A stretch of DNA of 61,082 nucleotides, counting the filler, from Jimgerdemannia flammicorona (Eukaryota), in assembly GCA_003990765.1 (NCBI GenBank). It is 3 parts of 3 records of this genome, joined end to end, with 100 filler letters (N's around TTAATTAATTAA, not from the genome) between each part and the next. Parts side by side here need not be neighbours in the genome. Positions count along the whole stretch, not along the records: positions 20,401 to 40,691 come from RBNJ01001715.1; 2 more parts are not named here. The stretch is one strand, 5' to 3'. A program made the translations under genes and the position numbers. The notes under the pieces are model-generated. The model saw only the letters and a list, made by a program, of their open reading frames with translations. It ran no database searches and was not told the origin of the DNA. This document shows positions 10,501 to 51,146 of the stretch, piece by piece; positions within the stretch are counted from its first letter, which is position 1, and the number at the start of each line of letters is the position of its first letter.

Positions 10501-11561
10501 TCCTTATAATACTGGGAGATGAAGCACAGTACTACAGCACCCTGGACTTATACTCAGGATTCCACCAAATCGGACTCACAGAAGTGGCAAGTGAAAAGTC
10601 AGCCTTCATCACCCCAGACGGAACCTACATCTACCTACGAATACCATTCGGAATGTGCAATGCACCAGCAAGCTTTCAGCAAATGATGAAAAAAATCTTC
10701 CGCTATGACATGGGAAGATAGATGATAGTCTATGTCAATGATATAATCATCTACAGCAAGACACCTGAGGAACATCTGCAGCATATACAGCAGATAATGG
10801 AGAGACTAAGACAACATGGCCTTTATATCAAACCCAAGAAGTGCAAGTTTGCGGAAATCGAGATCTCCTATCTTGGCCATATTATCAATCAAGATAGAAC
10901 ACACATGGACCCCCTCAAAATACAAGCAGTAGCAGCATACCCAAGGCCCACTACTGTTACAGAAGCCCAAGCCTTCATGAGACTCGCCTCCTACTATCGC
11001 AGTTTTATTAGAGGATTCTCCAACATCGCAGGTCCAATCTACGAACTCAACAAGAAGGATACCAAGTTCCAGTGGACTGGTAGACAATAAGAAGCATTTG
11101 ATGAACTCAAGGTCAGACTAACTCAGGCACCCATCCTCAGACAACCCAATTGGACCCAAGAATTTATCCTTCAGATAGATGCAAGTGCACAGGGACTAGG
11201 AGCAGTCCTAGCTCAAAAAGAAGACAAAAAAGAGTATGTCATTGCATATCTTAGCTGCGGAACCTGAGGAGCTGAAAAAGAATATGAGTCCTACAAGTTG
11301 GAATGCCTTGTAGTCATCTGGGCTGTGGAAAAGTTCCACTACTACCTGGCCAGAAGACACTTCACCATCCAGACGGACCACTCAGCTCTCACCTAGCTAC
11401 TGACAACTGGACAACCCAAGGGAATCTATGCCAGATGGATAATGAAGTTACAAGCCTATGATGTAACCATCGTACACTGCCCTGGAAGAACAAATTCCAA
11501 TGCAGATGCTCTCTCACAGACACCTCGAACTATCTCCAACCAACAAATCAATCATGAATAA
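7572..11561 (+). pseudogene. gag-pol: gag-protease-dUTPase-RT-RNaseH polyprotein in one frame with premature stops
   Basis: Zinc knuckle CYSCGEEDHYSYKC; protease IIDTGAG; dUTPase GVIDSDYTGEI and RGKKGFGSTG; RT RLCIDYRKLN, PFGMCNAP, YVND; RNaseH DAS..GLGAVL and NADALS. All ORF-track pieces share one frame. Confidence 0.95.
9621..10045 (+). pseudogene. dut: Trimeric dUTPase domain within pol
   Basis: Motifs AAGIDI, RSSLA, GVIDSDYTGEI, DRLAQM, RGKKGFGSTG. Confidence 0.92.
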
Positions 11562-18794: not shown

Positions 18795-20265
18795 TTCTCT
18801 GAACTGACCTCAATATTCTCATATTTCTCCATATATTTCTCTGAATAAACCTTCTGTATATCTTCTCTGAGCTAACATCTTCTAGACCAACTTCCTCTAT
18901 ATTGACTTCTCTACATTTCTCTGTACTAATCTCTATATCAACCTCTATATCAATCTCTCTATATTCCTCTATACTGACCTCTCCATACTTCTTTACACTT
19001 ATCTTTCTATATTTCTCTATACTGATCTCTTCAAATTTCTCTATACCAACCTCTTCATTTTTCTTCATACCAACTCTCTTTTTACTGACTTCCATACTAT
19101 TGACCAAATATATCAGTCTGCTATCTATCAATTATGTATAAAATATTTTATTCTTCACTATCACCATATTTATTCAAATATAGCAATATTTATCTATATT
19201 AATAATTCTATCTAAACAATTTCATTTTTTTCATACTTTGGTATTTATAATGAAGCTAATATTATATAATAAATATTCAACTGTTTTTATATAATTATCA
19301 ATTGCTTTGATTATTTTTTATCTCAGTTTTTCATTATTTATCTTTATATAGTTATTAGCTATAGAAAGTATATACATATCTAAGATTTAAATTATATGAT
19401 CTTTTCTTCTCTATGAGTTTTGAGATATCTGAATAAGTAGTTTAGTAATACTCTTATTGGCTTAAGTATACTCTATAATAAAATGAGAGTTGTTGCATGA
19501 TTTATGCAGTAGCCCAACCTTAAAAACTAGAGAATAGTTCAAATATTATTAGAAAAAAAAATTAGACATTAATTAAAAAAAAATAAAATAAATAAAACCA
19601 ATCTTCTTCAGCTAGATTGGCTGAATTATTGAGATTTAGGGCAGGAGTGGTGAGCTGTATAGTAGTAGAGTCAGAAAGCTGAGAGTAAGTAAGCTAAATA
19701 TTAGTAAGCTGAAGATCAGAGAGCTATATAGTAGTCAGATTGAGGAACTGAGAGTAAGTGAGCTAGATATTAGTAAGCTGAAGATCAGAGAGCTGGGGCT
19801 CAATGAGCTGGGAATCAGTAAGCTAGAGTTGGAAAGCTAGAAGTCAGCAAGCTAAGTAGTAAGCTTTGAGATAGCAAACTGAGAAGTGTTGAGCTAAGGA
19901 TTGGAAAGCTGGGGGGTCTTACAAATACTTATTAGTCATATAGTCACATTAATATAGTGAAGTAAAAAAATTGAGAGGTGAAATAAAGGATGAGAATAAA
20001 TAAATATTAGTAAAGCTTTTGATATATTAAATATTCAAAAGCTATTATAATAACATCTTTCAGAAGTTCATTTAAAATCTCTTTCCAAATCTCTTTTAAA
20101 ATCTCTAATAAATTGTATATTATATATTTATAATCTGAGAAATGAGAGTGAGAGATATGGAGGAATATGTGAGAGTAGTATAAAAGGAGTAGAATATAGT
20201 AAGAAAAGTTCTAGATTATAAGTATAAACATAAGCATAATTATAAGCATAAGTGAGATTTGTAAA

Positions 20266-20300
<35 letters not shown>

Positions 20301-20400
20301 NNNNNNNNNNNNNNNNNNNNNNNNNNNNNNNNNNNNNNNNNNNNTTAATTAATTAANNNNNNNNNNNNNNNNNNNNNNNNNNNNNNNNNNNNNNNNNNNN
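20301..20400. other. Artificial contig linker (N-run with six-frame stop TTAATTAATTAA)
   Basis: Identical 100-nt linker at 40692-40791. The flanking pieces are about 20.3 kb each. Confidence 0.95.
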
Positions 20401-20947
20401 AAGGTTTCTTAGCACTCCTTGGTCCATTCGAATTTAGTCTCCTTCTTCAGTAGCTCATAGATAGGTGCTGCAATGTTGGAGTATCCTTTGATGAATCTTC
20501 TGTAGTAGCTGGCCAGTCCAAGGAAGGTATGGACTTCTGTGGTTATTCTAGGTCTTGGGTAGGCTGCAACAGCCTTGATCTTCATGGGATCTGTGTGGAT
20601 TCCAGTCTGATTGATGAGGTGTCCTAGGTAGGTGATTTCTTGAGCTGCAAACTTGCATTTCTTGGACTTGATGTAGAGGCCATGCTCCTTGAGCCTCTTG
20701 AGGGCTAGCTGTATGTGATTGATATATTCTCATGTAGTATTGCTGAAGATGATCACATCATCAATATAGACAAAGAGCCATTTTCCAATCTCATTGCTGA
20801 AGACTCTGTTCATCATTCGCTGGAAACTTGCTGGGGCATTGCACATTCCAAATGGCATTCGCAGATAGATGTAGGTGGCATCAGGTGTGATGAAGGCTGA
20901 TTTCTCACTGGTATCTTGAGTGAGACCAATCTGATGGAAGCCTGAGA
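20401..20947 (-). pseudogene. Ty3/gypsy RT fragment, related to the 6982 element and interrupted by the Penelope-like dimer
   Basis: Minus strand FSGFHQIGL...MPFGMCNAPASFQRMM...VYIDDVIIFS...FLGLASYYRRFIKGYS. Confidence 0.92.
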
Positions 20948-21450
20948 AGAGGAGGAAGAAGGCCCAGCGGGAGCCAAGGGAGCAAACCCAGAGCCAGTGT
21001 CAAAGCAAATAGAAGACATGTGGAAGAGCGTGTATAAGGGGGACGAACAAAGAATGTAACCGAAAATGCATCAGCCATTTATTGCCATGTAAAAATGCAG
21101 TCCTTATATACAAAATATGACGTCCCAAAAGGGAGGATGCGCCACAACTCGGGGTGAACCGAATTAGGAATCACATGACCGCCAGAGATAGGCAAAGATA
21201 AAGGGGGAGCCAATCTCAGTTGCAGGATAAAAATCACAAACAAACACAAACAAAACAAATCCAAATCGAGATTAAAAAACATCTGCAGACCCCGGAAGGG
21301 TGAGCGCGAGCGAGGGGTGAGGCCAAAATAGAGTGAGCCACAGTGAGCCTGAGCAAAGCAAGGGGCCGAAGGCAGCGGAGGGGAGCGGAGTAAGGCCGAG
21401 ACCCCGGAGCGAGCCCGAGACCCCGGAGGGGGCAAGGATGTTTTTTAATC
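20948..21450 (-). repeat. PLE pseudo-LTR (3' terminal repeat, left arm)
   Basis: Reverse complement of 24917-25419 and 28575-29075. Confidence 0.9.
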
Positions 21451-23518
21451 CTCTCTGGCAGAACCGGAGGTACCAGAAGGTGACGAAAATGCAAAACAAG
21501 AGCGATGGATTGAAGAAGAAACAGAAGGAAGACGCGAACGAGCAATCAGAGGGCATCGGGAAAGAGATGAAAGTCCATGGCGTGAAAGAGAAGAGCGCAG
21601 GATGGTATCAGGGCATTGAGCAACCCAGCAAGCATGATCAAATGGTATGACAAGAATCGGGGGTAGGAAAGAAGAGGGGGTATGGAGAGGGTAAGGGGGG
21701 AGAGAGGGAAGGGAGGGGAGGTAAAGGAGAGAGAGTAGGGAAGAGCAAACAACAGACCATTCAACAGAAGCAAGCAGATCGCAAATGATAGAAATAGGGT
21801 AGGCACGATGATGAACCATGAAGTTGCCAAGAACCCAAACTGCAGACACCCAATCAGAATGACGGGAGCAGCATAATACAAGACAACAAGCCTCACCATG
21901 AACACATTCAAGAAGAGTGCAATGAGGATGGTTGGACAAGAAGTTAGGGAACTGTTGGGAACGGGGAAAACGGGAATAAACAACAGTTCAGAAAGGAGAA
22001 AGAGAAATAGAAAGGTCCAAAAAGGGAATACTAGTCGTACCGCACACCCAAGTAATAGAATGATGGGGAGGGTAGACACCCAGGAACACACTAGGGATAT
22101 CAATGCCAGCAACAGCGAAGACAATAAAGTTATCAATATATCGGCAAAAGAAGACATCCCCAGCCTGGAACGCAATGGAAAGAGGTGAAGTAATATCACG
22201 TAACGCATGCAATTCATGGGCCAGGCCAACGAGGTTGGCAAGGGTGGGGGCACAATTCATATCCATGGCAATACCAGAAGTCTGGTGGAAGGAGCCAAGG
22301 GCCGACTCAAAATAATTAGAGCTGCAGACGAGGAGCATAAGCTCAACAATGGAAGCCAGCGAAACTGGGGAATCCAAAGGAAAAACCAAGGAACCCAAGA
22401 AGCGAAGGCAGTCATCGATCTCATCAAAACGAATAGCAGTATAGAAGGAAGAGAAGTCACCAGAGGCCAAATGGGAAAAACGGTGAACAGGCACAATGGT
22501 GGAGCAGAGAAGGGTGAGCTCCTGAGTATCATGAAGAATAGTATACTCAGGCCCAAGATGGTGTTGTAAGAGAGCCATCTAGGAGAGAAAGAAGTGGGAT
22601 AACCACTTCGAAATCTCGGTAGTAGGAGAACTATAAGCAGCTGTAATAGGATGCCAAGCCAAAATAGGCTTGTGAACTTTAGGAAGAGCATAGAAAACCA
22701 GAAAAGAAATATCCAGAGAGGACAAAGAGTCTTGGAAGAAGTTAAAAATGGGGTTCACGAATGGGGAATCCGAAAGCGATCTAGCGCGAGCCAGAGAAAC
22801 CCGAAGAAGAGTGAGAACCTCATCCAATCCAAGAGCACTAGGCTCGTAAGCCATGGCTCGAAGGAGGGCAGAAAGGCCATCAAGGTAGAGCAACTTAGGA
22901 ATAAGTGCAAAACCTTGATTCTTATCAGTGACTGTGAGTAAATGCATAGGCAATTGCTTGACCAATTTAAGTGCAGTATGCATGGCATAGTCCGAAACCA
23001 AGCAAGAGTGAGCTCATCCGGAAATGGACAGTGAGTAAGCCATGTCGAGGAATATGCAGTATGGGAGGGGGGACCCAATCACTAGGAACAAAATAGCGAG
23101 AGGGCATCTCACTATGATCTTGAAAGAAAATGGCAAGGTTAAGAGCATGATGAAAACGTATTAGATAAGCTGGATCAGTGAAGGAGAATTGTGAGAGAGT
23201 CGCAGGAAAAACAAAGTGAGGACCCAAGGATAAGGCAAAGACTTGAAGGGGAGAAAGGGGGCAGTCAGCCAAAGAAAAAGGAGGAGACAAAAGTGTTCCA
23301 AGAGAAGAATAAACCCAAAAGTTCGGAACAAGCAACTGGGAAAGGCGAAGGGGGGACAACATGAGGAACCACTCAGGGCACACCAGAAGTGACGACGGAA
23401 TCCGAGAAGGGACGGGGACACCAGGGGAGAACCACGCTAGGGAGAAGTTTAAGAGCAGGAGGCCTTCCCCTTCCCTCTGACTTTTTTTGAAGGTGGCAAA
23501 CTCAACGAATGAGAGCAC
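21445..23518 (-). pseudogene. PLE reverse transcriptase ORF2, left arm (11-bp deletion near 23060 plus stops)
   Basis: TDKNQG, FYALPKVHKP..WHPI, SGDFSSFYTAI, QTSGIAM, YIDNF, IPFLDL, SNHP. Confidence 0.88.
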
Positions 23519-24666
23519 ACTCCGTCAGAGTGCCAGACCTTGCGGCCACAGACTTTCGTGCAGCCCTTACATTCAGGAGCACGGGGAGAGGAGGCGGAGG
23601 AGGAACCGGCAGAGGAGGCCGAAGGTGAGCAAGCAGCCGAAGGAGCAGCAGTGCGAGGAACACCACCATGAGGACAGACAGACTTGGCCGGGTGCCAGTA
23701 GGCATGGTGGAGGCAACCAGAGCAGACAGCACAAGGCCAGGCCCTGACAGGGTGAGAACCAAGTTGGCGGCCACGCTTGGGGGCAGGGGGAACAGAGGAG
23801 GAAGCCTTGGTGGGGGAGGGAGACCAGGAAGAGGCCGACAAAGCCTGATTGGGCTTAGCAGGGGTCTTGGTGGGGGTCTTGGAGGGGGTCTTGGTGGCAG
23901 CAGCAGCGAAGGAACGAACCTCAGCATGAGCAGCAGCACGAGCTTCGGCACGAATGGCCTTGGAGACTGAAACCTTGGGGGAGGCAGGCAGAGGAGCAGT
24001 AGCGGCAGCGTGAGCAGCAGCAGCAGCACGTGACATTTCCTGCTTGTGAAGGTGAGTGACAAAAGAGGTGCCAGCGAGGAGGAAGTGATACACAGCATCG
24101 ATGTCGGCGGCAATAGAAGGAACGTCCTGGATGGCGAAGCCACAGAAGGGGGTGGCATCCGAAAGATGAGAGGAGGTGAAGGCCATGAAAGCGGCATAGA
24201 CACATTGGAAGGAGGTGGAGGCGGCAGCGGCAGAAGCAGCGGCGGCATCAGCGGTGGCAAGTTTGGCAGTGGCAGTGGTGGCACAAACCTCTTCAGAGAG
24301 GGCTTGGCGGCGGGCCTCAGGGAGAATGGAGTAGCAGATGGCGGGTGGAGTGATGACGTCGATGTCATGGCAGAGATGAGCCTCCTTGGCAGAGAGGGCA
24401 AGAACTGACTGGAACTGGGAGAGGAGCGGACAACCAGAGGGATGAAGGTCCAGGGGGAGGGAAAGGATGGCGGATGAGACATAAGACTCGAACGAGACAG
24501 TGGCAGGGGTAAAGGCAGAGGGAGGGGGAGGAGGAAGTTCCTCATCCATGAGCTCGTCGACGAGGACAGAGGCCCTGAGGGCAGGCGGTACAGCAGAGGA
24601 GGAAGAAGGCCCAGTGGGAGCCAAGGGAGCGAACCCAGAGCCAATGTCAAAGTGAACAGAAGACAT
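23449..24666 (-). CDS. PLE ORF1, left arm (405 aa from the homologous ATG)
   Basis: Open frame highly similar to 25348-26565. Confidence 0.85.
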   Translation of the reverse strand: MSSVHFDIGSGFAPLAPTGPSSSSAVPPALRASVLVDELMDEELPPPPPSAFTPATVSFESYVSSAILSLPLDLHPSGCPLLSQFQSVLALSAKEAHLCHDIDVITPPAICYSILPEARRQALSEEVCATTATAKLATADAAAASAAAASTSFQCVYAAFMAFTSSHLSDATPFCGFAIQDVPSIAADIDAVYHFLLAGTSFVTHLHKQEMSRAAAAAHAAATAPLPASPKVSVSKAIRAEARAAAHAEVRSFAAAATKTPSKTPTKTPAKPNQALSASSWSPSPTKASSSVPPAPKRGRQLGSHPVRAWPCAVCSGCLHHAYWHPAKSVCPHGGVPRTAAPSAACSPSASSAGSSSASSPRAPECKGCTKVCGRKVWHSDGVCSHSLSLPPSKKVRGKGKASCS

Positions 24667-24916
24667 GTGGAAGAGCATGTATAAGGGGGATGAATAAAGA
24701 ACGTAACCGAAAATACATCAGCCGTTTATTGCCATGTAAAAATGCGGTCCTTATATACAAAATACGATATCCCAAAAGGGAGGATGCACTACAACTTGGG
24801 GCGAACCGAATTAGGAACCACATGACCACCGGAGATAGGCAGAGATAAAGGGGGAGCCAATCTCAGTTGCAGGATAAAAATCACAAACAAACACAAACAA
24901 AACAAATCCAAATCAA

Positions 24917-25419
24917 GATTAAAAAACATCCTTGCCCCCTCTGGGGTCTCATGCTCGCTCCAGGGTCTCGGCCTTACTCCACTCCCCTCCACTGCCTTCG
25001 GCCCCTTGCTTTGCTCGGGCTCGCTGCGGCTCGCTCTGTTTTGGCCTCACCCCTTGCTCATGCTCACCCCTCCGGAGTCTGCGGATGTTTTTTAATCTCG
25101 ATTTGGATTTGTTTTGTTTGTGTTTGTTTGTGATTTTTATCCTGCAACTGAGATTGGCTCCCCCTTTATCTCTGCCTATCTCCAGCAGTCATGTGGTTCC
25201 TAATTCGGTTCACCCTGAGTTGTGGCGCATCCTCCCTTTTGGGACGTCATATTTTGTATATAAGGACCACGTTTTTACATGGCAATAAATGGCTGATGCA
25301 TTTTCGGTTATGTTCTTTGTTCATCCCCCTTATATACGCTCTTCCACATGTCTTCCGTTCGCTTTGACACTGGCTCTGGGTTCGCTCCCTTAGCTCCCGC
25401 TGGGCCTTCTTCCTCCTCT
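24917..25419 (+). repeat. PLE pseudo-LTR (5' copy, central), starting with a hairpin that is the symmetry axis
   Basis: GATTAAAAAACATCC (24917-24931) pairs with GGATGTTTTTTAATC (25083-25097). TATATAA at ~25257 and AATAAA at ~25284. The repeat extends into the first ~24 codons of ORF1. Confidence 0.9.
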
Positions 25420-26565
25420 GCTGTACCGCCTGCCCTCGGGGCCTCTGTTCTCGTCGATGAGCTCATGGATGAGGAACTTCCTCCTCCCCCTCCCCCTGCC
25501 TTTACCCCCGCCACTGTCTCATTTGAGTCTTACATCTTGTCTGTCATCCTTTCCCTCCCCCTGGACCTTCGTCCCTCTGGTCGTCTGCTCCTCTCCCAGT
25601 TCCGGTTGGTTCTTGCCCTCTCTGCCAAGGAGGCTCGTCTCCGCCATGATGTTGATGTCATCGCTCTGCCCACTGTCTGCTACTCTATTCTCCCTGAGGC
25701 CCGCTGCCAAGCCCTCTCTGAAGAGGTTCATGCTGCCACTGCCACTGCCAAACTCACCACCACTGATGCTGCTGCTGCTTCTGCCACTGCCACCTCCACC
25801 TCCTTCCAACGTGCCTGTGCCACTTTCATGGCCTTTGCCTCCTCTCGTCTTTCGGATGCTGCCCCCTTCTGTGGCTTCGCCATCCAGGATGTTCCTTCTG
25901 TCGCTGCCGACATCGATGCTGTGCATCGCTTCCTCCTTGCTGGCACCTCTTTTGTCACTCGCCTTCATGAGCAGGAAACGTCACGTGCTGCCGCTGCTGC
26001 TCGCACCACCGCTACTGCTCCTCTGTCTGCCTCCCCCAAGGTTTCGGTCTCCGAGGCCATTCATGCTGAAGCTCATGCTGCTGCTCATGCTGAGGTTCAT
26101 TCCTTCGCCACTGCTGCTGCCAAGGCCCCCTCCAAGACCCCTGCCAAGACCCCTGCTAAGCCCAATCAGGCTTCGTCGGCCTCTTCCCGGTCCCCCTCCC
26201 CTGCCAAGGCTTCCTCCTCCATTCCCCCTGCCCCCAAGCATGGCCGCCAACCTAGTTCTCACTCTGTCAGGGCCTGGCCTTACGCTGTCTGCTCCGGTTG
26301 CCTCCACCATGCCTACTGGCACCCGGCCAAGTCCATCTGTCCTCATGGTGGTGTTCCTCATGCTGCTGCTCCTTCGGCTGCTCGCTCGCCTTCGGCCTCC
26401 TCCACCGGTTCCTCCTCCGCCTCCTCTCCCCGTGCCCCTGAATGTAAGGGCTACACGAAAGCCTGTGGCCACAAGGTCTGGCACTCTGACGGGGTGTGCT
26501 CTCATTCGTCGAGTTTGTCACCTTCAAAAAAAGTCAGAGGGAAGGGGAAGGCCTCCCACTCTTAA
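25348..26565 (+). CDS. PLE ORF1, right arm (405 aa): Ala-rich helical segments and two Cys/His motifs
   Basis: ATG start and intact frame in both arms. Motifs CAVCSGCLHHAYWHPAKSVC and CKGCTKVCGRKVWHSDGVC (left-arm spelling). Confidence 0.85.
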   Translation: MSSVRFDTGSGFAPLAPAGPSSSSAVPPALGASVLVDELMDEELPPPPPPAFTPATVSFESYILSVILSLPLDLRPSGRLLLSQFRLVLALSAKEARLRHDVDVIALPTVCYSILPEARCQALSEEVHAATATAKLTTTDAAAASATATSTSFQRACATFMAFASSRLSDAAPFCGFAIQDVPSVAADIDAVHRFLLAGTSFVTRLHEQETSRAAAAARTTATAPLSASPKVSVSEAIHAEAHAAAHAEVHSFATAAAKAPSKTPAKTPAKPNQASSASSRSPSPAKASSSIPPAPKHGRQPSSHSVRAWPYAVCSGCLHHAYWHPAKSICPHGGVPHAAAPSAARSPSASSTGSSSASSPRAPECKGYTKACGHKVWHSDGVCSHSSSLSPSKKVRGKGKASHS

Positions 26566-28580
26566 ACTTCCCCCTGGCATAGTTCTCCCCCAATGTCCCC
26601 GTCTCTTCTCAGATTCTGTTGTCACTTCTGGTGTACCCTGAGTGGTTCCTCATGTTGTCCCCCCTTCGCCTTTCTCAGTTGCTTGTCCCGAACTTTCGGG
26701 TTTATTCTTCTCTTGGAACACTTTTGTCTCCTCCTTTTTCTTCGGCTGACTGCCCCCTTTCTCCCCTTCAAGTCTTTACCTTATCCTTGAGTCCTCGCTT
26801 TGTTTTTCCTGTGACTCCCTCACAATTCTCCTTCACTGATCTGGCTCATCTAACACATTTTCGTCGTGCTCTTGACCTTGCTATTTTCTTTCAAGATCAT
26901 GGTGAGATGCCCTCTCGCTATTTTGTTCCTAGCGATTGGGTCCCCCCTCCCAATGTCTCTTCACACTGTATATTCCTCGACATGGCTTGCTCGCTGTCCG
27001 TTCCCAGATGAGCTCACTCTTGCTTGGTTTCAGATCATTCCATGTGTACCATGCTTAAATCGGTCAAGCAATTGCCTATGCATTTGCTCACAGTCACTGA
27101 TAAGAATCAAGGTTTTGCACTTATTCCTAAGTTGCTCTACCTTGATGGCCTTTCTGCCCTCCTTCGAGCCACGGCTTATGAGCCTAGTGCTCTTGGATTG
27201 GATGAGGTTCTAACTCTTCTTCAGGTTTCTCTGGCTCGTGCTAGATCACTTTTGGATTCCCCATTCGCGAACCCCATTTTTAACTTCTTCCAGGACTCTT
27301 TGTCCTTCCCGGATATTTCTCTTCCAGTTTTCTATGCTCTTCCTAAAGTTTACAAGCCTATTTTGGCTTGGCGTCCTATTACGGCTGCTTATAGTTCTCC
27401 TACCACCGAGATTTCGAAGTGGTTATCCCACTTCTTTCTCTCCTGGATGGCTCTCTTATAACACTGTCTTGGGCCTGAGTATACTATTCTTCGTGATACT
27501 CAGGAGCTCGCCCTTCTCTGCTCCACCATTGTACCTGTTCACCATTTTTCCCATTTGACCTCTGGTGACTTCTCTTCCTTCTATACTGCTATTCGTTTTG
27601 ATGAGATCGATGACTGCCTTCGCTTCTTGGGTTCCTTGGTTTTTCCTTTGGATTCCCCGGTTTCACTGGCTTCCATTGTTGAGCTTACGCTCCTCGTCTG
27701 TGGCTCTAATTATTTTGAGTCAGCCCTTGGCTCCTTCCACCAGACTTCTGGTATTGCCATGGGTATGAATTGTGCCCCCACCCTTGCCAACCTCGTTGGC
27801 CTGGCCCATGAATTGCATACGTTACATGATATTACTTCACCTCTTTCCATTGCATTCCAGGCTAGAGATGTCTTCTTTCGCCGATACATTGATAACTTTA
27901 TTGTCTTCGCTGTTGCTGGTATTGATATCTCTAGTGTGTTCCTTGGTGTCTACCCTCCCCATCATTCTATTACTTGGGTGTGCGGTATGACTAGTATTCC
28001 CTTTTTGGACCTTTCCATTTCTCTTTCTCCTTTCCGAACTGTTGTTTATTCCCGTTTTCCCCATTCCCAACAGTTCCCTGACTTCTTGTCCAACCATCCT
28101 CATCGCACTCTTCTTGAATGTGTTCGTGGTGAGGCTTGTCGTCTTGCATTATGCTGCTCCCATTGTTCTGATTGGGTGTCTGCTGTTCGGGTTCTTGGCA
28201 ACTTCATGGTCCATCATCATGTCTACCCTATTTCTATCATTCGCGATCTGCTTGCTTCTGTTGAATGGTCTGTTGTTTGCTCTTCCCTACTCTCTCCCCT
28301 TTACCCCCCCTCCCTTCTCTCTCTCCCCTCTTACCCTCTCTGTACCCCCTCTTCTTTCCCACCCCCAATTCTCATCGTACCATTTGATCATACTCACTGG
28401 GTCACTCAATGCCCTGATACCATCCTGCGCTCTTCTCTTTCACACCATGGACTTTCATCTCTTTCCCGATGCCCTCTGATTGCTCATTCGCATCTTCCTT
28501 CTGTTTCTTCTTCAATCCATCACTCTCATTTTGCATTTTCGTCACCTTCTGATGCCTCCGGTTCTGCCAGAGAGGATTAA
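26496..28580 (+). pseudogene. PLE reverse transcriptase ORF2, right arm; single frame, three premature stops, no GIY-YIG endonuclease
   Basis: VTDKNQG, FYALPKVYKP..WRPI, GDFSSFYTAI, NYFE..FHQTSGIAMGMNCAPTLANL, RRYIDNF, IPFLDL, SNHP are PLE-RT motifs. The C-terminus is short and Ser/Pro-rich. Confidence 0.9.
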
Positions 28581-29075
28581 AAAACATCCTTGCCCCCTCC
28601 AGGATCTTGTACTCACTCTGGGGTCTCGGCCTTACTCCACTCCCCTCCGCTGCCTTCGGCCCCTCGCTTCGCTCAGGCTCACTGCGGCTCACTCTGTTTT
28701 GGCCTCACCCCTTGCTCACACTCACCCCGGAGGGGTCTGCAGATGTTTTTTAATCTCGATTTGGATTTGTTTTATTTGTGTTTGTTTGTGATTTTTATCC
28801 TGCAACTGGGATTGGCTCCCCCTTTATCTCTGCCTATCTCTGGCGGTCATGTAGTTCCTAATTCAGTTCACCCCAAGTTGTGGTGCATCCTCCCTTTTGG
28901 GACATCATATTTTGTATATAAGGACCGCGTTTTTATATGGCAATAAATGGCTGATGTATTTTCAGTTACGTTCTTTATTTGTCCCCCTTATACATGCTCT
29001 TCCATATGTCTTCCGTTCGCTTTGACACTGGCTCTGGGTTCGCTCTCTTGGCTCCCACTAGGCCTTCTTCCTCCT
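28575..29075 (+). repeat. PLE pseudo-LTR (3' terminal repeat, right arm)
   Basis: Direct repeat of 24917-25417, ending at GGCCTTCTTCCTCCT. Confidence 0.9.
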
Positions 29076-29955
29076 TGGCTTCGCTTCTAAGGGTGGTAAG
29101 GATTTCTTGAATATTCAGCAAGGGCGGCCTATCCTTCTTGGTGATAGCATTGAGTTTCCTATAGTCAATGCAGAGTCTTGGTGCAAACTCTCCAGGCTTG
29201 CTTCCTTTCTTCAGGGCAAGGACAATGGGTGAGGCCCAGGGGCTGATAGCTTGCTTGATAATTCCAGCTTCTTCCATTTCCTTGAGTTCAGCTCGCAGCC
29301 ACTCTCTGTAGGCAGGTGGTATGGGTCTGGCTTTCTGATAGATAGGCTTGGTATCACCAGTGTCAACTTCATGGTGGTACTTGGGTTCTTGATTGTAGAT
29401 ATCCCTAAAGTCTGTAGTAAGTACTCCTTCATTCTGGTACAGGATCTTGAGAAGTTGTTCCTCTAGGGGAAAGTTTTCTCCAATGGTATATGTGTGCTTG
29501 TTCTGGTCCTTGTCTTTCTTGTGCTCAAGTTCAATAATCTTGGTGGCGGCATAGGCTCCTCTTCCAGTAGATCCAAAGCCTTGTTCTCCTCTCTTGGTCT
29601 TGATAAGTTCAGTGGCCTCTATGTTCTTGGGCTTCTTGATTTCGTGGATCAGCATCTGGCCAATCCTGTCATGCTTCTTGACTTTGAAGGGAGTGGTGTA
29701 GTTGTGATTTCTGACTATGAGAAAAATCTCACCAGTGTAATCAGGGTCAATTACTCCTCCTTCAACTGAGATTTCGCTTTTGGCCAGACTGCTCCTGGTC
29801 TTGATAATTCTGGCATGGTTTTCTGGCAACTTGACTCCAATTCCAGTGCCAAGTAGGGTGGTGGTCTGTGGTTCGAGGGTAGCATCTTGGATGCTGGCAA
29901 GGTCCATTCCTATGGCTCCTTCAGTCTTATATTCTGGGATCTTGGCTTTGAATAG
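29076..29955 (-). pseudogene. dut: Ty3/gypsy dUTPase plus RT N-terminus (upstream part of the 20401-20947 fragment)
   Basis: GMDL, RSSLA, GGVIDPDYTGEI, RGEQGFGSTG, SPWASPIVL, RLCIDYRKLN. Confidence 0.93.
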
Positions 29956-31426
29956 TGTAACAGACCAAAATGTACCACCCGAATTATAACTTAGCCAGAT
30001 GACGCAAACAATTAGCATACTTACTCAGCATGATGTGACTTTCAGTGTATCATAGTTACTCATGCCCGCCACACTTATAATTAGCCAAGACACCAGATCA
30101 GGATTGTTTACCTGTGTCCTGAGGACACACTCATGTCCGGTGGACACACTCATATCCTGCAGACACACTCATGTTCTGCGGACACACTCATGTCCTATAG
30201 ACACACCTGTACCCAGAGAACACACCCAAACATTACCAAAGATAGCAAATCTATAGTTAGCCACATAGTAACCAGATAGCAACCAACTTGTATAAATTAC
30301 CCCAGAGGCAAGAGTGAATAAAACCTCAGTCCAAAATACAAATACCAAAGAAGCCTCTAAAGATTGAGCATTGGTCCCCTTTCCACTCCAGTCCACTTTC
30401 CAATACAAAGCTGATTTTGCCACCAAGTTCAAGGAAGAACTTCACCACCTTTGGAACTATTGGTTCGCTTGCCAGATAAGCCTGAAGATTTGCCACCTAA
30501 GTTCAAGGAGAACTTTGCCGCCTTTTGAGTAACCTGCCGCTTAAGGAATAAGCTGCCATTTCCAAGTTATCCACATTAGAAAGCCGCCTTGCCCAAGCCA
30601 GTTTCTGATGCAACTTCGCAGTGATCTGTTCGTGCAAACGAAGCCAGTCTTTGACGCAACTTTGCCAAGAGACCCTTTCCATGCCGCCAGTTGTTCGTAT
30701 TCCCAGTTGAAGCCCGCTGATTCAGGAAGAATCTGCGCAATCCCCTTTCTCAGAAGAACCCTGCCGATTCAGGAAGAATCTGCGCTATCCAAGTTAATTC
30801 CCAGTTAAGCCGCCATTTTCAAGAAGTCCGCCGATTCAGGAAGAATCCGCATCATTTGCCATTTTCAAGTTATCCACATTCCCAGAGAATCCGCACCACC
30901 TGAGTCGTTATTCCCAGTGAGCCCGTTGCAGAAGAATCCTTGCCATACAATTTCCAGTGAGCCTGTTACAGAAGAACTCGTCGCCAGCATAATTCCCAGT
31001 GAAGCCCGCCACTTTTGGAGAATCCGCACCAAATCGAGTTATCCACTGAATTATCAGAACATCTGCATAAGGAACCCGTCGCACTACACAAGATCATCAT
31101 GCAGAAATCGCCCGCCATTCAAGAAGGAGAACTGCTAAATTGCCAGACCGTCACACTCAGAAATTGCATACTTTTGGAGATCGTCATGCTACACAAATTA
31201 TTGTGGCATTCCCAGTTGACCCAAGAAGGAAAAGACATACAAATCGCCGCTACACCCAGAGAACTGTCCCAATAAGGAAACTGCTCACACACTATCCAGA
31301 TTTTGACTATTATACCGCTAAACACCAAGAATATTTTGTTGCTTTTAATAAAGTAACTGGGGGCTCAAGCCAAACTACATCAACCCCCAACCTTGTAATT
31401 TGCCCCCATTGAGCTGGCATGTTACA
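29956..31426 (+). mobile_element. Long solo LTR (1471 bp) with internal tandem repeats
   Basis: TGTAACA...TGTTACA termini. Core CTTGTATAAAT...GAGTGAATAAA(A)CCTCAG is shared with the other LTRs. 18-bp GACACACTCATGT repeats at ~30110-30215 and GATTCAGGAAGAATC repeats downstream. Confidence 0.8.
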
Positions 31427-32400: not shown

Positions 32401-34335
32401 TAGTGCTCTAATTGAGTCAGGGAAATTCAAACCTGATTCAAATTTACTAACTATATATCTGATTTGAGCCAGTTCAAATTCATTATGTGATAAATTCAAA
32501 TCAGTTCAAATTTGAATTTATTATATGATGAGTTCAGGTCAATTTGAACCCAAATTAAATCAGCTCAAATTTACTTCAGAAGCTAGAATTCTGATAAATT
32601 CTTCTGATGATAAACTAAACTAAATTATAAATCAACTAGTGCAAATTAACGAGCCCACCAAAAACAGCAATTCTTTGGCAGAAAAAAAACCTAAAAAAAG
32701 AATACTATATTTGTTAAACTTTCACCAAATATTTAAAAACTATAACATAATATGAAAATTAGTTACCAAATATATAAAATATCTACAGATTTTTTTACTC
32801 TCCTAAGTTTCCAAAAAAATTATTATAGTAGTATATAGCTTCCAAGATTCTGTAATAGATACTTAGAGATAAACTATTCAAAACTTCCTCATCTTCAATA
32901 ACTATTGAACTGTATAGTTGATTGGAGTAAAACACCATCATCATATTAGACTCTAGCAGAACTCCAATACTGTAAGTCAAATTATAGAATAAGTCCCCAG
33001 ATTTTGAGATATACTGTTCTTTATATTTAATGATATAGAGTAAAATAGATATTATATCTTAATCAGTGTGAGTAAGAGAGCTTGTATATTGGTCAAAAAA
33101 TATGTTACTGACTTTTACTATATTTTGCTCAAACTGAAATCCTCCAAGTCTAAAATATATCCTAGATTGACTAAGATTTATCTGACCTCTATCTATTTCA
33201 GATAATTTCAAAGCTGATAAAGATACTGGTGCCAAAGTTGAGAATGCTGGGGATGCTGAGGATGCCAAGAATGCTAAGGATACTAAGAATATCAGAGATG
33301 CCAGAAATATCAAGAATGCCAGAGATGCTAAGGATGCCAAGAATACTAAGGATATTGGGATATTCCCTGAAATTTCCTCAGATGATAAATAATAGAGAGT
33401 ATTGAATTGGTCAAAAATTAGGTGAAGTAGGGGAATTTGTCATCACATCTGACAAGAAGTATTGAAAAGAAGTGAAGCCATCTCTATAACAGTTATTTCA
33501 TATTCTTTCTATTTATCTTATCTAATTTTTAGTTTAAAATTATTAAGAGATATGATATAGTAATGTATCCCTCTAGTATAGGTCAAAGTATAACTAGCTG
33601 ATATGTAAGATCCAGTTCTAGCTTAAGCTTTACTGTGCAATTTTGCTTTCCAAACTTTGAATGCCTCCTTACAAATATCTATCAAAATCTGGCTTGCTTG
33701 ATCTCTCAACATCCTCCTCCAAATGACAAGAACAACTTCCTCCATATTAGCAACTAAGAGAATATAATTGCAGTGTGAATTTAGAATGCCAGCTGGTAAA
33801 AGAGAGGACTCCAAAAATATCATAGTTCAAAAATAAGTTTAGTGCCCTTTTTCTTAAAACTTAATAGAATATTGCTATTCTACTTTTTCTAAATTTTGTA
33901 TATAAAGTATTATTGTCTGGCCTTCTAGAAGATCAAGCCTTGGAATTCTCAGTATTTCAAAATTCTACAAACTTGGGATATGAAACTAAGTCTAGATAAA
34001 TTTGGCCTTAAGATTTTACTAATCTACCCAATATTGGTATTATTAATTTAAAAAATCTACTAACTATATTTTACATCAATCCTTCTTTATTTTCTAAAAT
34101 TAAAATAAAAAGCAAAATAACCTTATAAATAATTTGGATGGGCACACCCCTATGCCCCCTCTCTCCTCCAAAAAAAAAAAAAAAAAAAAAAAAAATACCT
34201 CAGAAACTTAGAAAAATATTGAAAAATTCAATCATATATTTTCTGATCTATCAGAAAGGGCTCTCAGGAAAATGAAAATGCCATAGCTTAGACAATTTCT
34301 CATGGTAGAGGCTTCTAAATATCTCCTGAAGTGTA
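32401..34335 (-). mobile_element. Decayed hAT-like DNA transposon, continuing at ~40273-40480 beyond the LINE
   Basis: TAGTGCTC terminus with subterminal TTCAAAT repeats. Decayed dimerisation-like motif (EQYISKSGDL, ~32990-33020). 9-bp GATGCCAAG repeats at 33225-33360. Confidence 0.5.
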
Positions 34336-34479
34336 TCAATTCTTTGCTCTATTTTTTTTTTTTTTTTTTTTTATAGTTGCTTGGACTCCCTTTCTTTATT
34401 AATACCCATCTATTCCATATAATTACAATGATCCCACCCCCTATCCAATCCCCCTAGGGGGGCCCCCCTCCCCCTACCC

Positions 34480-37400
34480 CTTCTCTGTAAAAGATCACTT
34501 TGTCAAATACTATCCCCACCCTCCCACCACTCTGCTCACAGATCTTCATCACTAAACTGCAATGTCGTCCTCCCTGAGGACCCCAACCCACCCACCATCC
34601 GGTCAGCAGATCCCCCACCAGCTCCTCCTACCTTAACACCTTCTCATGTAGTCCCAACCACTACCCCTCCTCAAATACAAAAAGCCAATGGCCCACCAGT
34701 CCCACCCATACTACTAACACCCATCCAACAGTGAGCCAACTATCCCCCACCCCACCTACAAGCTGAGATCTTAAGTCCTCCCAGTGACCCCCCTCCCCCA
34801 CCCACCAATGCCCCACATCCAGTCTATCCCCTATCTTAGTCCAAAATTCCCCCAAGACCTCACACTCTCCCAGCCAATGTTCTGGTGTCTGTACCTGACC
34901 TCCAGCATGCCCAACATCGCAACACTTCTCGCAGTCAAATTGTTCACCCTCTACTAAATGCCCTGAGTGGAAATTCAGCATGACATTTCTCCGCAACATT
35001 TGCCACCATACCACCCAGAACTTGGGAGGAAGCCACCTCCATACCTCAGCACTCCAAGACCAGATGCCTGCCCAGTCCCACTCCTCTCCAATTCCAACTG
35101 CCTGCCAGCTACTTGGCCAAAGGTCCTGGCCAAGCCCCTGCTGACACTCCACTCCCTTCCCAATATCGAATGCAGCCAGTGGAGTACCCCCCAGGAGCAG
35201 TCTATCCCAACGCCACATATCAGGCCCCCACACTGCCTCCCCCTCGTTACCTTGCCATCACAGGCCAATTCGGTGTGCTCCATCAGCCACTCCCTACCAA
35301 AAGCCCTTGAACCGCAGCCTCCAAACTCCATTCAGCCCCACCAAAGAGAGCAGATCTCCAGAGACCCTCGGGGGGATGTTCGCATCTCCCATACCTTCTG
35401 CAGCAGAGGTACCCAACCTCTGCCCTACAATTCCACAGCTCTCTTCAACCACCAGGCTCGCAAGCAGTGCAGCCTCTTAGGGAAATCCACCAGACTAAGA
35501 CCTCCTCTGACTACTGGTCTCACAAGAGTATCCCAACTGATCTGAGACCTCCTCCCCACCCAAATTCAATCCCTAGCCACCTTTGTCAGCTTCTTCACCA
35601 CCCATGCTGGGAAGTTGAGGTGATATACTACATACTACAGCTTTGGGAACCAATATACATTCAGAATTGATACCTGCCCTGCTAGAGAGATATGGCGGCC
35701 TCCCCATCCTCGAAGGGCCTCCCCCCAACTATTCACTCTGCCCTCCCACCACACTTGTGGCAAGACAGAACCATATATAGAGAGGAAGATGCCCAGATAC
35801 TGCACCACCTCACCAGTAGGGACAATTGTTCCAATGACGTCCCCACCCACTAGCCCATTCCCTAGCACCATTGTCTCACACTTATACCAGTTGAGTTTTG
35901 CCCCCGAGTGAGCCTCATACCATTCCACAGTCTCCTGAAGTGCCTCTACATCCACCACAGACCCAAGTCCAACTACCATATCATCAGCAAAGGCCCCCAC
36001 CTTCTACACTATACTATATATAGAGAGCTCTGCTACCTTCTGGCGAATCCTATCCATCAACAGCTCCAGTGATAGGGCATAGAGAATCAGGGATAGAGGG
36101 TCCCCCTGAGGTACTCCTCTTCCCAAGGGAAATGCCCTCCCGTGGTGACCATTATACATCAGAGCTGCCTGACTACTTTCCAGCAGACTCAACATAGAGG
36201 CCCTAAATGTTGAGGGAACACCAATTCGGTCCAACACCTTTCCCAGCCACACTCACCATATACGGTTGTAGGCCTTCTCCTGGTCCAGAAAGACCAACCT
36301 TCCATCCAGTCCACAGGCCCGGGCCTCTTCAATGACACCATGAACCCATGCAGTCCCATCTCTTATTAGTCTGCCCCTAACAAAGCCCCTCTGCTCTTCC
36401 CCCAGCACCTGTTGGGCAACCTTCTGCAGCCTTACGACAATCACCTTAGTCACCATCTTCCTGTCCATATCCAGAAGCATGATTGGCCTCCAGTTCTTCC
36501 AGTCTTCCCTCCATCCCTTTTCTTTGTATAGTAAGGCCACCAGCCCCAGATCCTGCTCTCCAACCCACTCACCACTCTGAAGAACATGGTCACAAAGATC
36601 AGCCATCTTGCCCAACACTCCGGGGACATTTACCATCTTCTTTCAGAAGTCTCAAGGCAATCCATCCTCCCCTGGTACCATCCCAAGCTTAGTTGCTGCC
36701 AGGACACTCTGGATCTCCTCCCCCTGCACCGGTAAGATCAAGTCCCTCAGCCCAGCAATCTGCAGTAGCCCCCACTCATCCAGTGTATTTACAATCTCTG
36801 CCTCATCGGCACCCCCTTCTCCCTCACTCCACAAACCCTGCCATCTCTCCTTCAAGACCCCCAGGATTTGTTGCGTGCCATGAACTATATCCCCATCAGC
36901 ATCCAGGACCCCATCCCACCAATGACACACTCTCCTAGCTTTGAGAAGTCTCAATAAGTACCTAGTAGGCTGCTCACCCTCCTCAAGCCCCTGCCACCAC
37001 AGCCTAGCAGCCATACCCCACATATGGGTCTCCTCCTCTTCCCTCAGCACCTGTTGTAGTTCCACTATCTCCAATTTCGCCCTCGCTATCCTCCAATCCT
37101 CCACCCCTACAGCAGTGAGCAAATCTGCCCACTCTATATGTAGTCTCCTCAGTCTGCTGGAAGCACACCTTGTGCACCTCCTTCTCTACCTCCCAGCCTC
37201 TCTACCAGCCTCTCCCCAATAAACCCTTGCAGCCTCTTTTAACCTCATCCAGCAGACAGCCACAGGCAAACCCTCATGCTTCCAGATAAAAACTTTTGTC
37301 TGAATGTCCTCCACCCACAGTTCCCACAGCCCCTTCTCAGTCAGCAGGGAGGAGTTAAGGTGCCAATGTCCAGGTCCATCTCCACTCCCCCCAAACTGCC

Positions 37401-38100
37401 CCTGCCCCAACAGTCCCCAGTGATCAGACCATGGGCACCACTCTACTTCCAATGCCCTCCAAACATCCGAACTCCAGCACTCCACCATCAGAATCCAGTC
37501 AATCCTTGTACCCAGGCCATTCACCCAATACATGTAAACCCTGGTGTCACCCCACCTTGTTCTGTCTATATCCCCCAAGGAGCTTAATGTCTCCACCTCC
37601 TCCCATGCATCCAGACCTCCACTTCTACCCCTGGCACTCCTCCCTCCATCAGTTCTGTCCAGATGCTGATCCCGAACCATATTAAAGTCTCCACCAAGAA
37701 CATCGACCCCTTCCTCCAAGAGAATATCCTCCTCCAGCAATCCCCTAATCCATGCAATCCTCTCACCCCTAGCCGCAGGGCAGTAGCAAGAGCCCACCTT
37801 CACCAATTCCCACCCTGACTGATGCCAATCTCCCCAGACCAAGCAATCGCCCCAGCTCCTGATTTCCCCCAAGTCTCCTCTGTCCTTCCTCACCAGAATT
37901 GCTACCTTTCCAAACCAAGCAGCAGCTCCCCCCCACTCCCTAGTCCACTCTGCCCAATCATTCTCATCCTTACATTGAACATCCTGCAGTAAAAAGAGAT
38001 CAGCCTCCAATCCCTTGAGCCAAGTAAAAATGTTCCTACATCACCCAGATCCCCTTAGCCCATTCACATTCAAGGAAAAAATGTTGGTTGTACTGTTCAT
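34480..38100 (-). pseudogene. LINE ORF2: APE endonuclease, RT and C-terminal CCHC
   Basis: MNSTTNIFSLNVNGL, GGDFN, RIDW, SDHW; WRPIMLLD, QRGFVRGR, FLDQEKAY, GVPQGDPLS, AFADD; CEKC...EHWLGEC. Confidence 0.9.
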
Positions 38101-38132
38101 AAAGAATAATGATATATATCAGAGCCCATCCT

Positions 38133-40101
38133 CTAAAAGTCAGCATCCTGCCTCTTCTGCACTAAGTCCAAGTTAAGTTCAGCAGCCAGCTCCCTCTCCC
38201 CAGCTTCCCATGCCTCCAACTCTCCCAGAAGTTCTATCATTGCCCCATCCTCACACTCTTCAAAATCCTCATGATACTCCAGACAGGCCTCCTGCCAGAG
38301 CTGCAGACCCCAACACTCCACCCAACAGTAGTCTGCCCACTCAGTGGCGACCACCCCCAGCTCTGCCTTCCTCACCTCGTCAACCTCATATCCCTCCTCC
38401 TCCAGCAAAATCGCCAGAATCTTCACCTTCAGTGCCTCCACCATTCCATCCTCACACAGGATTCTTGCCCAATGCTCCTCAGGCATCACCCTCAGGTCTA
38501 CCTCTCCCAATGCTTCTGCTGCGAGGTTATCCATCACCTTGCATACCCACAACAAGTTCTCCACCTCCTTCCCTCCCGGAGTCTCCAGTCGCCCTGTATC
38601 CAACATCATGGTGTCAGCTCCTATACTAGCAGCCTCATCCCACTCCTCCTCAGGGACATCCACCAGCTCATCCTCGCCAACTGCCACCACCTGACCCCCT
38701 TGAGCCACATCAGGGACCCCAAAGTGCACCTGCTGGGCCCCCTGCATCTGTGTATCCTCCATCCTCCCTCACTTCCCCACTGGGCCCCTCCTGATAAGTG
38801 GGGGGGGGGTGGCATCCAACTCCGGCTCTCACACTTCAAAGGTACCATCAGCAAATAGGTCCTTGTCCAGCCCCTTCCCAGCTCCTGCCTTCTTCACTTC
38901 TACCTCCTCTCCTCCTTTACCAGCCCAGACACTGGCCTCAGCGCCTCCAGACTCCTCAGCTTCACCCAACTTCTTCTTCCCCCCACCTGTCATACTCGCC
39001 AACAGCTCCTTCTGCCTCTTGTATTCCTGGACCCACTCCCACTGCTTCTTATCCATATGGATACACCTCCCGCCCACTACCTCCAGATGTGTCGATTCCT
39101 CATACAGTTTCCAGGCCTTCGCTCTCCTCTCCACAGCACCACTCAACTCCTCCAGTGCCTCCAACAAGTCCTCCTCCTCCTCTTTGCTCCCCTTCACCCT
39201 CGACACCTTGCAGATGATGGCCCTCCACATCAGCACTAAGGGCCAGTCACTCGTCTTCCCTGTGGCCTCCTTCTCTGCCAACTGAATCCTGACATCGACA
39301 TCACCTGTCCTGATAGTTGTCCCCTCCCACAACTGAAATCCAATGTCCACCATATCTCTATACTCTACCATCACCTCCTCCACCCTCCTCCTAGTCTCCT
39401 CCTTAGTCACCGTGGGCACCCCCCTCACCAGAAGCTGCACCACCCTGGGGTCCCACCTCAAGCACCTTACCATGGGGACCACCACCTCTCCAACCACCAC
39501 TCTTGTCTTCATGGCCTTGTCCAGTAGGCCTGCCTCCTCAAAGCCCACCTCAACCCCCTCCATGCCCTTCAAGAACTTCACCGAGGCCACACCAGCCACC
39601 TGCTTCGAGATAAGCCCCAGGACCATCCTCACCATCACTGCCAAGCCCTGGAAGCACAAGGTAGCCGCAAACTTTGAGATTGACTTCTTGAGCAATGGGG
39701 CCACTGCCAGTCCCATTACACCATCAGCCAGATCCCCCTTCCACATCAGGAGCCCCTGCCCCCCCTGGCCATCAGCCATCACATCTCTTTTTTTTTTCCT
39801 GATTCACCACCATACTACCATCAGCAGTCCTGCCACTACCCTCAACCACTACTCCACTCCCTCCACCTCCCACCAGTGAAGGCCCAGCTCCCCCAGCATC
39901 TCCAACCTTCTGCTTCCCCTTTCCTCCTGCCTGTCCACTGCAGGCACCCCTCAGCCAACCCCCAGCCTTAAGTGCATTGGCAAAGCTCCCTCCCTACTGC
40001 CCTCCAGTCCCCCCATCAGTGCCTCCTCCACCCCCCGAGCTGCCCAGTCCACTTGATCCACCGAAAGACCCCATCCCCAGTCCATACCCTCTTCTGACAT
40101 G
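38133..40101 (-). pseudogene. LINE ORF1 (frameshifted)
   Basis: Homologous to 51147-53062 (APLLKKS.S.F, RTGDV.VR, EEEEDLLEALE). Confidence 0.75.
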
Positions 40102-40691: not shown

Positions 40692-40791
40692 NNNNNNNNN
40701 NNNNNNNNNNNNNNNNNNNNNNNNNNNNNNNNNNNTTAATTAATTAANNNNNNNNNNNNNNNNNNNNNNNNNNNNNNNNNNNNNNNNNNNN
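40692..40791. other. Artificial contig linker
   Basis: N-run with TTAATTAATTAA. Confidence 0.95.
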
Positions 40792-51115: not shown

Positions 51116-51146
51116 ATTGAATAGATATTGTAGAAGGGACCTCAAC

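Follow-up and report, generated by a model that had tools for sequence, protein, structure and literature searches.

A head-to-head dimer of a nuclease-less Penelope-like element in Jimgerdemannia flammicorona, folded at a short inverted repeat of its own terminal repeat

Known Penelope layouts and the Jimgerdemannia locus

In the endonuclease-bearing Penelope-like element (PLE) Pen2a_Av of Adineta vaga, an inverted copy of the terminal repeat overlaps the direct copy by 15 bp and is shorter than the full repeat, which includes the first 12 codons of the open reading frame (ORF) (PMC3846280). The sections of that paper on endonuclease-bearing Penelope elements also describe palindromes at the inverted junction, for which a self-priming model was put forward, and one insertion without target duplication, and say that elements of fungi and protists without an endonuclease lack the Penelope organisation. 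The cleavage properties of the nuclease have been considered very likely to create the tandem and inverted layout, according to the section of PMC8557442 on this point. Here we describe a locus of the fungus Jimgerdemannia flammicorona (assembly GCA_003990765.1) at which a PLE with no detectable nuclease is present as two complete copies lying head to head. The locus occupies positions 20950-29075 of the stretch of DNA that was analysed (61,082 nt; hereafter the window), which consists of three contigs artificially joined (1-20300, 20401-40691 and 40792-61082) through linkers of the form N44-TTAATTAATTAA-N44 at 20301-20400 and 40692-40791.

The locus resembles Pen2a_Av, as the same sections present it, in the order repeat, ORF, repeat, in the inverted copy at the 5' side, which falls short of a full repeat, in the 15-bp overlap, in the palindrome at the inverted junction and in the inclusion of the first codons in the repeat; the lack of a target duplication is matched by the one Penelope insertion mentioned above. 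It differs from Pen2a_Av in that no GIY-YIG domain was found, a complete second element stands inverted where Pen2a_Av has a repeat fragment, and a 151-nt single-copy loop is enclosed by the junction repeat. It also has no 30-40-bp tail, no hammerhead motif was detected, the target is shorter by 22-24 bp, and a fungus is the host.

Two other groups of PLEs are informative. Coprina-1_Alen of Ascochyta lentis has two ORFs, with direct repeats of a few hundred base pairs at its termini, and fungal Coprina copies lie between telomeric repeats at chromosome ends (PMC13159263, sections on Coprina). Coprina and Athena elements keep to a single orientation and are presumed to anneal to the overhangs of telomeres (corresponding sections of PMC13159263; PMC8557442). 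In the features covered by those sections, the window element shares with Coprina and Athena the lack of a nuclease, the DKN motif, and the reverse transcriptase (RT) together with the thumb, and with Coprina-1_Alen the fungal host, the two ORFs and the direct terminal repeats. Unlike them, it has no telomeric repeats in the 61-kb window, has a CT-rich 3' end, sits inside a gypsy gene and forms a head-to-head dimer. The second group is represented by PAc (Poseidon, Anolis carolinensis), which in purified form elongates the two DNA strands alike, starting on the RNA at shared internal sites that lie 111-118 nt into the ORF, without target homology (PMC11167929). The window element likewise has a fixed end point early in an ORF (+70-72, compared with +111-118 in PAc) with no homology between start site and target, and extension of both strands from the same start sites, as in PAc, would give outward-facing 3' ends. 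Features of PAc that were not found here are GIY-YIG cutting of the target with AT-rich preference, a hammerhead ribozyme and a start-site stem-loop.

Among other retroelements, L1 twin priming takes the second target DNA end as a second primer and gives one element with an inverted, truncated 5' part through random internal priming, between target-site duplications due to the element's nuclease, and endonuclease-independent L1 insertions occur at pre-existing breaks with small target deletions and no duplication. The dimer resembles twin priming in mechanism only, through use of the second DNA end as primer and through inverted segments, and departs from it in having two full-length copies, the same RNA start for both, a dedicated 15-bp repeat and a 22-24-bp deletion in place of a duplication.

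The layout is less new than an earlier note on this DNA implied, since the 15-bp overlap, the palindromes and self-priming are already published for endonuclease-bearing Penelope elements (PMC3846280, sections cited above). What is new here is the full layout in a nuclease-less, non-telomeric fungal lineage, with target loss and with both arms full length. A limited literature search returned no description of such dimers for nuclease-less PLEs, including those of Mucoromycota-type hosts.

Anatomy and age of the dimer

A repeat search detected an inverted dimer of 8126 bp at 20950-29075, the 8.1-kb palindrome that the earlier note had reported. It is composed of an outer arm pair (20950-23063/26962-29075; 2114 nt, 93% identity) and an inner pair (23062-24931/25083-26952; 1870 nt, 91% identity), both inverted, the inner halves lying 151 nt apart. 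Global alignment of the arms gave 3644 identical columns out of 3978 with a single gap, 11 nt near right-arm position 26951 being missing from the left arm. Repeat search and alignments place the left arm, a complete element copy with its 3' end outward, at 20950-24916 on the minus strand. No third copy of the element was found when the right arm was compared with the window by blastn, and the family is known here from this one locus in the window.

The right arm, on the plus strand, carries direct terminal repeats of 501 bp each (blastn, sequence and alignment): a full 5' repeat, or pseudo-long terminal repeat (pLTR), at 24917-25417, and an outer 3' repeat at 28575-29075 that ends in ...GGCCTTCTTCCTCCT. 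The outer 3' pLTR of the left arm is at 20950-21450 on the minus strand (sequence and four-way repeat alignment), and its inner repeat, at 24597-24931 on the same strand (repeat search, blastn and alignment), is shortened and ends in a 15-bp repeat common to the right arm. As delimited by the repeat search, the terminal-repeat pairs are 20945-21450/24917-25422 and 24592-24930/28742-29080. The order within the repeat is a first inverted repeat (IR1), 151 nt, its complement (IR2), and then 320 nt in which lie a TATA-like motif (near 25258 in the 5' repeat of the right arm) and ORF1's first ~23 codons.

Sequence and four-way repeat alignment map IR1 (GATTAAAAAACATCC) to 24917-24931 and IR2 (GGATGTTTTTTAATC) to 25083-25097, both on the plus strand. 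Between them, the 151-nt loop at 24932-25082 is present as a single copy at the centre, oriented as in the right arm's repeat (plus strand; repeat search, sequence, alignment and DNA fold). In the left outer repeat, the reverse complements of IR1 and IR2 lie at 21436-21450 and 21270-21284, with 14 of 15 positions paired. The mirror of the sequence to the right of 25097 begins immediately to the left of 24917, which puts the fold within the 15-bp repeat, as the note had it, with IR1 as the exact point where symmetry changes. The accompanying claim that the two copies share one central terminal repeat holds for the 15-bp repeat and the loop, which are common to both, and fails for the whole repeat, the inverted inner one being ~167 bp shorter than the full repeat. 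By hand arithmetic, a 15-bp inverted repeat within 501 bp has a chance expectation of ~1e-4. Its stem appears in both the minimum-energy and the centroid structures predicted for RNA of the 3' repeat, and is also kept in the predicted DNA fold at the centre. The first base of IR2 differs (G/A) between central and outer repeats; we draw no conclusion from this difference, as it falls at a CpG site where parallel decay is possible.

At the outer ends, the right arm terminates at 29075 with ...CCTCCT, the CT-rich element 3' end reading ...CTTCTTCCTCCT. The left arm terminates at 20950, or at 20948/9 if the element-like G20949 and A20948 are included. The two ends thus agree within 2 nt, ~70-72 nt into ORF1, in keeping with the view that both arms stop at essentially the same point. 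G20949 is an element-like base of the left arm that is absent from the right arm and that the right flank could not have templated.

Transitions make up 316 of the 326 substitutions between the arms (97%), most of them at CpG, as counted on another alignment that included a few flank bases. By context, differing sites amounted to 221/474 for CpG, 49/466 for CpA, 38/674 for CpC and 5/554 for CpT. This pattern identifies the divergence as decay of two physically separate, probably methylated copies and not as read error, and it matches the C-to-T/G-to-A type of difference that a single origin had been said to entail. Neurospora-type repeat-induced point mutation (RIP) was considered as the source and rejected for this CpG-centred decay, with 47% of CpG sites differing vs 10.5% of CpA sites.

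The four terminal-repeat copies are equidistant, with pairwise differences of 5.7-8.1% over 335 shared columns, and their variable sites comprise 33 singletons and 12 two-two splits. Distances within an arm (0.081 right, 0.078 left) are like those between arms (0.057-0.078), so all four repeats were once identical and have one age. Both arms also have the same defects, namely an in-frame TGA at 27009, a frame change between ORF1 and ORF2 and a YIDN sequence in RT motif C. Equidistant repeats, a 97% share of transitions and common defects together uphold the proposal that one event produced both copies.

Coding content and the Penelope-type reverse transcriptase

Translation of the right arm gave an ORF1 of ~405 codons at 25348-26565 (plus strand), rich in Ala, Ser and Pro and matching no Pfam family, with its mirror at 23449-24666 (minus strand) in the left arm. 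Its ATG at 25348 lies 70 nt before the end of the repeat. A Cys/His cluster (C-x2-C-x4-H-x4-H and a further C) encoded at 25700-25790, in both arms, is reminiscent of a zinc knuckle that binds nucleic acids. ORF2 is read in the -1 frame with respect to ORF1; it occupies 26490-28580 (plus strand) and encodes a DKN motif, an RT core and a thumb, as judged from translation, Pfam, phmmer and alignment. It is interrupted by in-frame stops at 26580, 27009 and 27459, the DKN motif lying in the 27012-27458 piece, and it ends at a TAA (28578-28580) inside IR1 of the 3' repeat, which leaves no room for a C-terminal nuclease.

The two ORFs overlap by ~76 nt (26490-26565), and in both arms the overlap includes an A_AAA_AAA heptamer at 26526-26532, ~30 nt before the ORF1 stop, that looks like a gag-pol style -1 frameshift site. 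PLEs mostly have one ORF, and a frameshift arrangement is unusual for them. The TGA at 27009-27011 falls within a stretch that aligns continuously with relatives, and may have arisen from CGA by parallel CpG decay or been inherited from the template. Motif C at 27885-27896 encodes YIDN (TAC ATT GAT AAC) in both arms, whereas all seven of the seven aligned relatives have DD at the corresponding place; the G-to-A change behind YIDN is not at a CpG.

The Pfam match to RVT_1 was weak (E 0.005). A phmmer search with the window RT against 1.84 billion representative proteins returned 639 relatives at E<=1e-3, the best at 45% identity, with consensus motifs DKNLG, PKxHK, RPI, GxAMG, RYIDD and FLDL. 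GIY-YIG was the sole recurrent non-RT domain among these relatives, found in 5/75 by Pfam and in 22/150 by a self-made regular expression applied to 150 matches. The combination of an RT with GIY-YIG is the mark of PLEs. In an RT tree of 140 rows (11 of the 150 matches were left out as too short), the window RT grouped with P0001 (support 99) and P0003 (97), in a 35-row clade (support 96) without nuclease-bearing rows, while all 21 nuclease-bearing rows fell into another clade (support 98). The nearest relatives terminate at the same place as the window ORF2.

Within the element itself, a Pfam search of the 8 main-frame pieces and of 26 further ORFs of at least 70 aa found no domain besides the weak RVT_1, neither GIY-YIG nor any other nuclease. 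Rfam searches for a hammerhead ribozyme were negative at 20000-30000 (E<=1) and at 28400-29150 (E<=10), thresholds at which decayed copies or minimal variants may escape, and no other credible Rfam family was found in the element region. A sequence search of PDB with the window protein gave 0 matches at E<=10, and a homologue search restricted to longer proteins gave none. ESM Atlas yielded only unnamed or rotifer/cnidarian RT-like clusters, which we regard as leads and did not use as evidence. On sequence grounds, the element is Penelope-like with an RT of the PLE type, and the relatives of its RT are supported as nuclease-less, a placement that stops short of Athena or Coprina by name. Its pseudo-LTRs of the partial-tandem type, holding the first ORF codons, and its inverted 5' copy adjoining the upstream repeat with a palindrome at the junction are both features of PLEs; the C- or N-terminal GIY-YIG of canonical endonuclease-bearing members is absent. 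The endonuclease-less Penelope-like identity first suggested for this element was thus borne out by the tree clade, by the missing nuclease domain and by relatives without one, and the phylogenetic check that had been called for put the RT in a clade free of nuclease-bearing members.

Further copies were sought in public data. One soil-metagenome DNA run (X1) carried 10% of the sampled words, and no RNA run was listed as carrying any of them. A scan of metagenome contigs by protein patterns gave 167 pattern matches and a scan of viral contigs with alignment gave 17, none of them a relative of the family, and a 31-mer from the terminal repeat had 0 matches. One X1 contig (depth 2) has an 'opposite strands' joint at 23994/26042; we rejected it as a fold because arms so alike let a third copy lie across both. 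None of the X1 contigs listed bridges the centre of the dimer.

Elsewhere in the window, two LINE-like elements on the minus strand (34000-40600 and 47000-53000) carry Exo_endo_phos and RVT_1 domains and have a very strong GC skew (-0.4 to -0.55). Strand skew is marked in the Penelope arms as well, whose sense strand is C- and T-rich. An ORF at 724-2505 scores 21.1 bits, just above the cut-off of 21, for the Zn(2)-Cys(6) binuclear cluster domain of fungi, a borderline match and the sole sign of a fungal host in the window itself, and a T run of ~30 nt stands just before the first linker.

Insertion site and origin of the dimer

The dimer interrupts the RT gene of a Ty3/gypsy element. The left flank (20403-20948, minus strand) holds the downstream part of this gene (...FSGFHQIGL...), recognised by translation, by an RVT_1 match and by a 72% DNA match to 10553-11077, and the right flank (29076-30024, minus strand) holds the upstream part of the same gypsy pol gene, a dUTPase and then the start of the RT ending in ...LRSEAK (translation and Pfam). 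The dUTPase domain upstream of the RT in the interrupted element was matched at E 9e-27 (28975-30024, minus strand). A second gypsy in the window (9726-11077), 72% identical, reads EAQYYSTLDLYSGFHQ at the matching place, and the empty site could be read from run X1, with five contigs per side, as ...GAGAA-CAGATCCAAGGTGGTGTAGTAT-TTGGC.... Set against these contigs of intact gypsy copies, the flanks show that the dimer took the place of 22-24 bp of target; each junction has a 1-nt overlap, and no target-site duplication is present at either. Loss of 22-24 bp with nothing duplicated is the footprint expected of a pre-existing break, not of staggered nicks. The summed contig depth in X1 was ~400-500 for the gypsy vs ~10-30 for the Penelope-like element. 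Telomere-type repeats in runs of at least three units are absent from the whole 61-kb window, in which the host contig is a 20-kb piece; the chromosome-end location with telomeric repeats at the 3' end that characterises Athena and Coprina was thus not found at this locus.

We consider it very probable that the dimer arose in one RT-coupled event whose junction was mediated by the inverted repeat. How the event began is a closer call, and we would put about even weight on both ends of a break having been primed and the resulting cDNAs having been joined through the hairpin arms. In that case, a double-strand break inside the Ty3/gypsy RT gene, with loss of ~22-24 bp of target, would have left two 3'-OH ends, and both would have primed reverse transcription at one fixed RNA site, ~70-72 nt into ORF1. 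Two antisense cDNAs would then have grown toward each other, with the element 3' ends outward. The IR1 copy at the 3' end of one cDNA would have annealed to the IR2 copy of the other, and mutual extension would have produced the inverted repeat, the single 151-nt loop, the second inverted repeat and the 4-kb mirror arms, both of which would later have decayed chiefly by CpG-to-TpG transitions. Since the two cDNAs have the same polarity, they could pair only at an inverted repeat of the element, and the junction lies exactly in the sole such repeat of the terminal region, which argues for a join by annealing of IR copies.

Three observations lead us to prefer two-ended priming. The PAc protein extends both strands from the same internal RNA sites (PMC11167929), much like two ends fixed ~70 nt into ORF1; the left arm goes no further than the end of the element, where the opposite side of the break follows; and one element-like base of this arm lies past the point at which the right arm finishes. 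Several points weigh against this account. The evidence comes from one locus, so that the fixed start and the recurrent fold at the inverted repeat rest on a single case, and the extra base is one nucleotide and could be an untemplated addition. A 166-nt flap has to be removed from one cDNA, and host enzymes have to remove the RNA from both. The TATA-like motif lies ~340 nt downstream of IR1, so an RNA with IR1, loop and IR2 at its 5' side would need read-through or a template jump. No significant RNA structure is predicted around the end point (z 0.03 and -1.47), unlike the stem-loop of PAc. Finally, YIDN in both arms vs DD in the relatives implies that the template was probably already catalytically dead, a copy moved in trans by an RT that is not seen here.

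The strongest alternative is that one cDNA snapped back on itself. One break end would prime a cDNA whose 3' end folds from IR1 onto its own IR2 copy (15 nt across a 151-nt loop) and copies itself, after which the hairpin strand would be joined to the other break end and replicated to a palindrome; in a variant proposed for endonuclease-bearing Penelope elements, self-priming takes place on an antisense transcript. Such a fold would yield the exact centre observed (inverted repeat, a single loop oriented as one arm, inverted repeat), it would use a stem that is kept in the predicted DNA and RNA folds, and for one molecule to pair with itself is a simpler step than for two cDNAs to pair. A template ending at IR1, the start of the 5' repeat of the right arm, would leave no flap to remove, and palindromes at inverted junctions have been interpreted as self-priming (PMC3846280, section on junctions). 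The outer end of the left arm is harder to explain this way. Snap-back should leave a hairpin-capped end sealed to the same flank, or should run on into the flank if the 5' strand is resected, whereas in the left arm the element's end is followed by the other side of the gypsy gene, and there is an extra element-like base that the right arm could not template. That the RNA starts at IR1 is moreover an assumption, and no ribozyme was found. The earlier note had offered both mechanisms, annealing of two cDNAs and snap-back, and both fit the anatomy; the run-on into the flank expected of target-primed snap-back is not seen, and we rank it lower, as possible and rather unlikely.

Two successive insertions appear improbable. 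Here a monomer would have come first, and its hairpin-prone 5' repeat would later have broken and taken up a second copy in opposite orientation, the cDNA end of which annealed to the inverted repeat. Penelope elements have been reported to insert into their own repeats (PMC11167929; the section of PMC3846280 on such insertions), and joining in a second round could likewise be guided by the 15-nt homology. The within-arm repeat distances (0.081 and 0.078) nevertheless equal those between arms (0.057-0.078), indicating the same age, the same defects occur in both arms, and a second copy would have needed to slot in precisely between first copy and gypsy flank at no further cost to the target, whose total loss is only 22-24 bp.

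Still less probable is an inverted duplication of a monomer at the DNA level, by fold-back priming or template switching at the short inverted repeat, in the manner of origin-dependent inverted-repeat amplification. Inverted duplications are known to switch at short inverted repeats (PMC4689423 and PMC10766183), yet such copying would extend beyond the element, whereas the arm stops within 2 nt of the element end, and its joining to the opposite side of the target with only 22-24 bp lost would be a remarkable coincidence. Least probable of all is that the assembly is at fault, through a chimeric fold-back read or a misjoin close to where the contig starts: the dimer does lie 548 bp from a contig end (the contig begins at 20401) and palindromic Penelope structures are hard to assemble (PMC3846280 and PMC8557442, sections on assembly), but the arms differ at 8% of sites with 97% transitions concentrated at CpG, the flanks are adjacent parts of one gypsy gene and not mirror images, and the same-strand overlap at the centre is no longer than 15 bp.

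The locus indicates that the Penelope head-to-head layout can arise without a nuclease of the element's own, none being detectable here. At this one locus, the inverted repeat may be a built-in dimerisation device. A broader reading, which we put forward only tentatively, is that the head-to-head layout of PLEs is encoded by the RT and its RNA and not by the GIY-YIG nuclease. In this fungus, nuclease-less elements would then enter chromosome interiors by bridging double-strand breaks, with both ends priming at one fixed internal RNA site and the terminal-repeat hairpin, whose first arm contains the ORF2 stop codon, joining the cDNAs, so that each insertion would be an RT-mediated break repair that leaves a palindromic dimer. 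The locus, with its 15-bp repeat, 151-nt loop and fixed end, is a clean natural substrate for setting two-ended priming against snap-back. If the layout recurs, it would be a property of the RT and its RNA, and nuclease-less elements would not be confined to chromosome ends.

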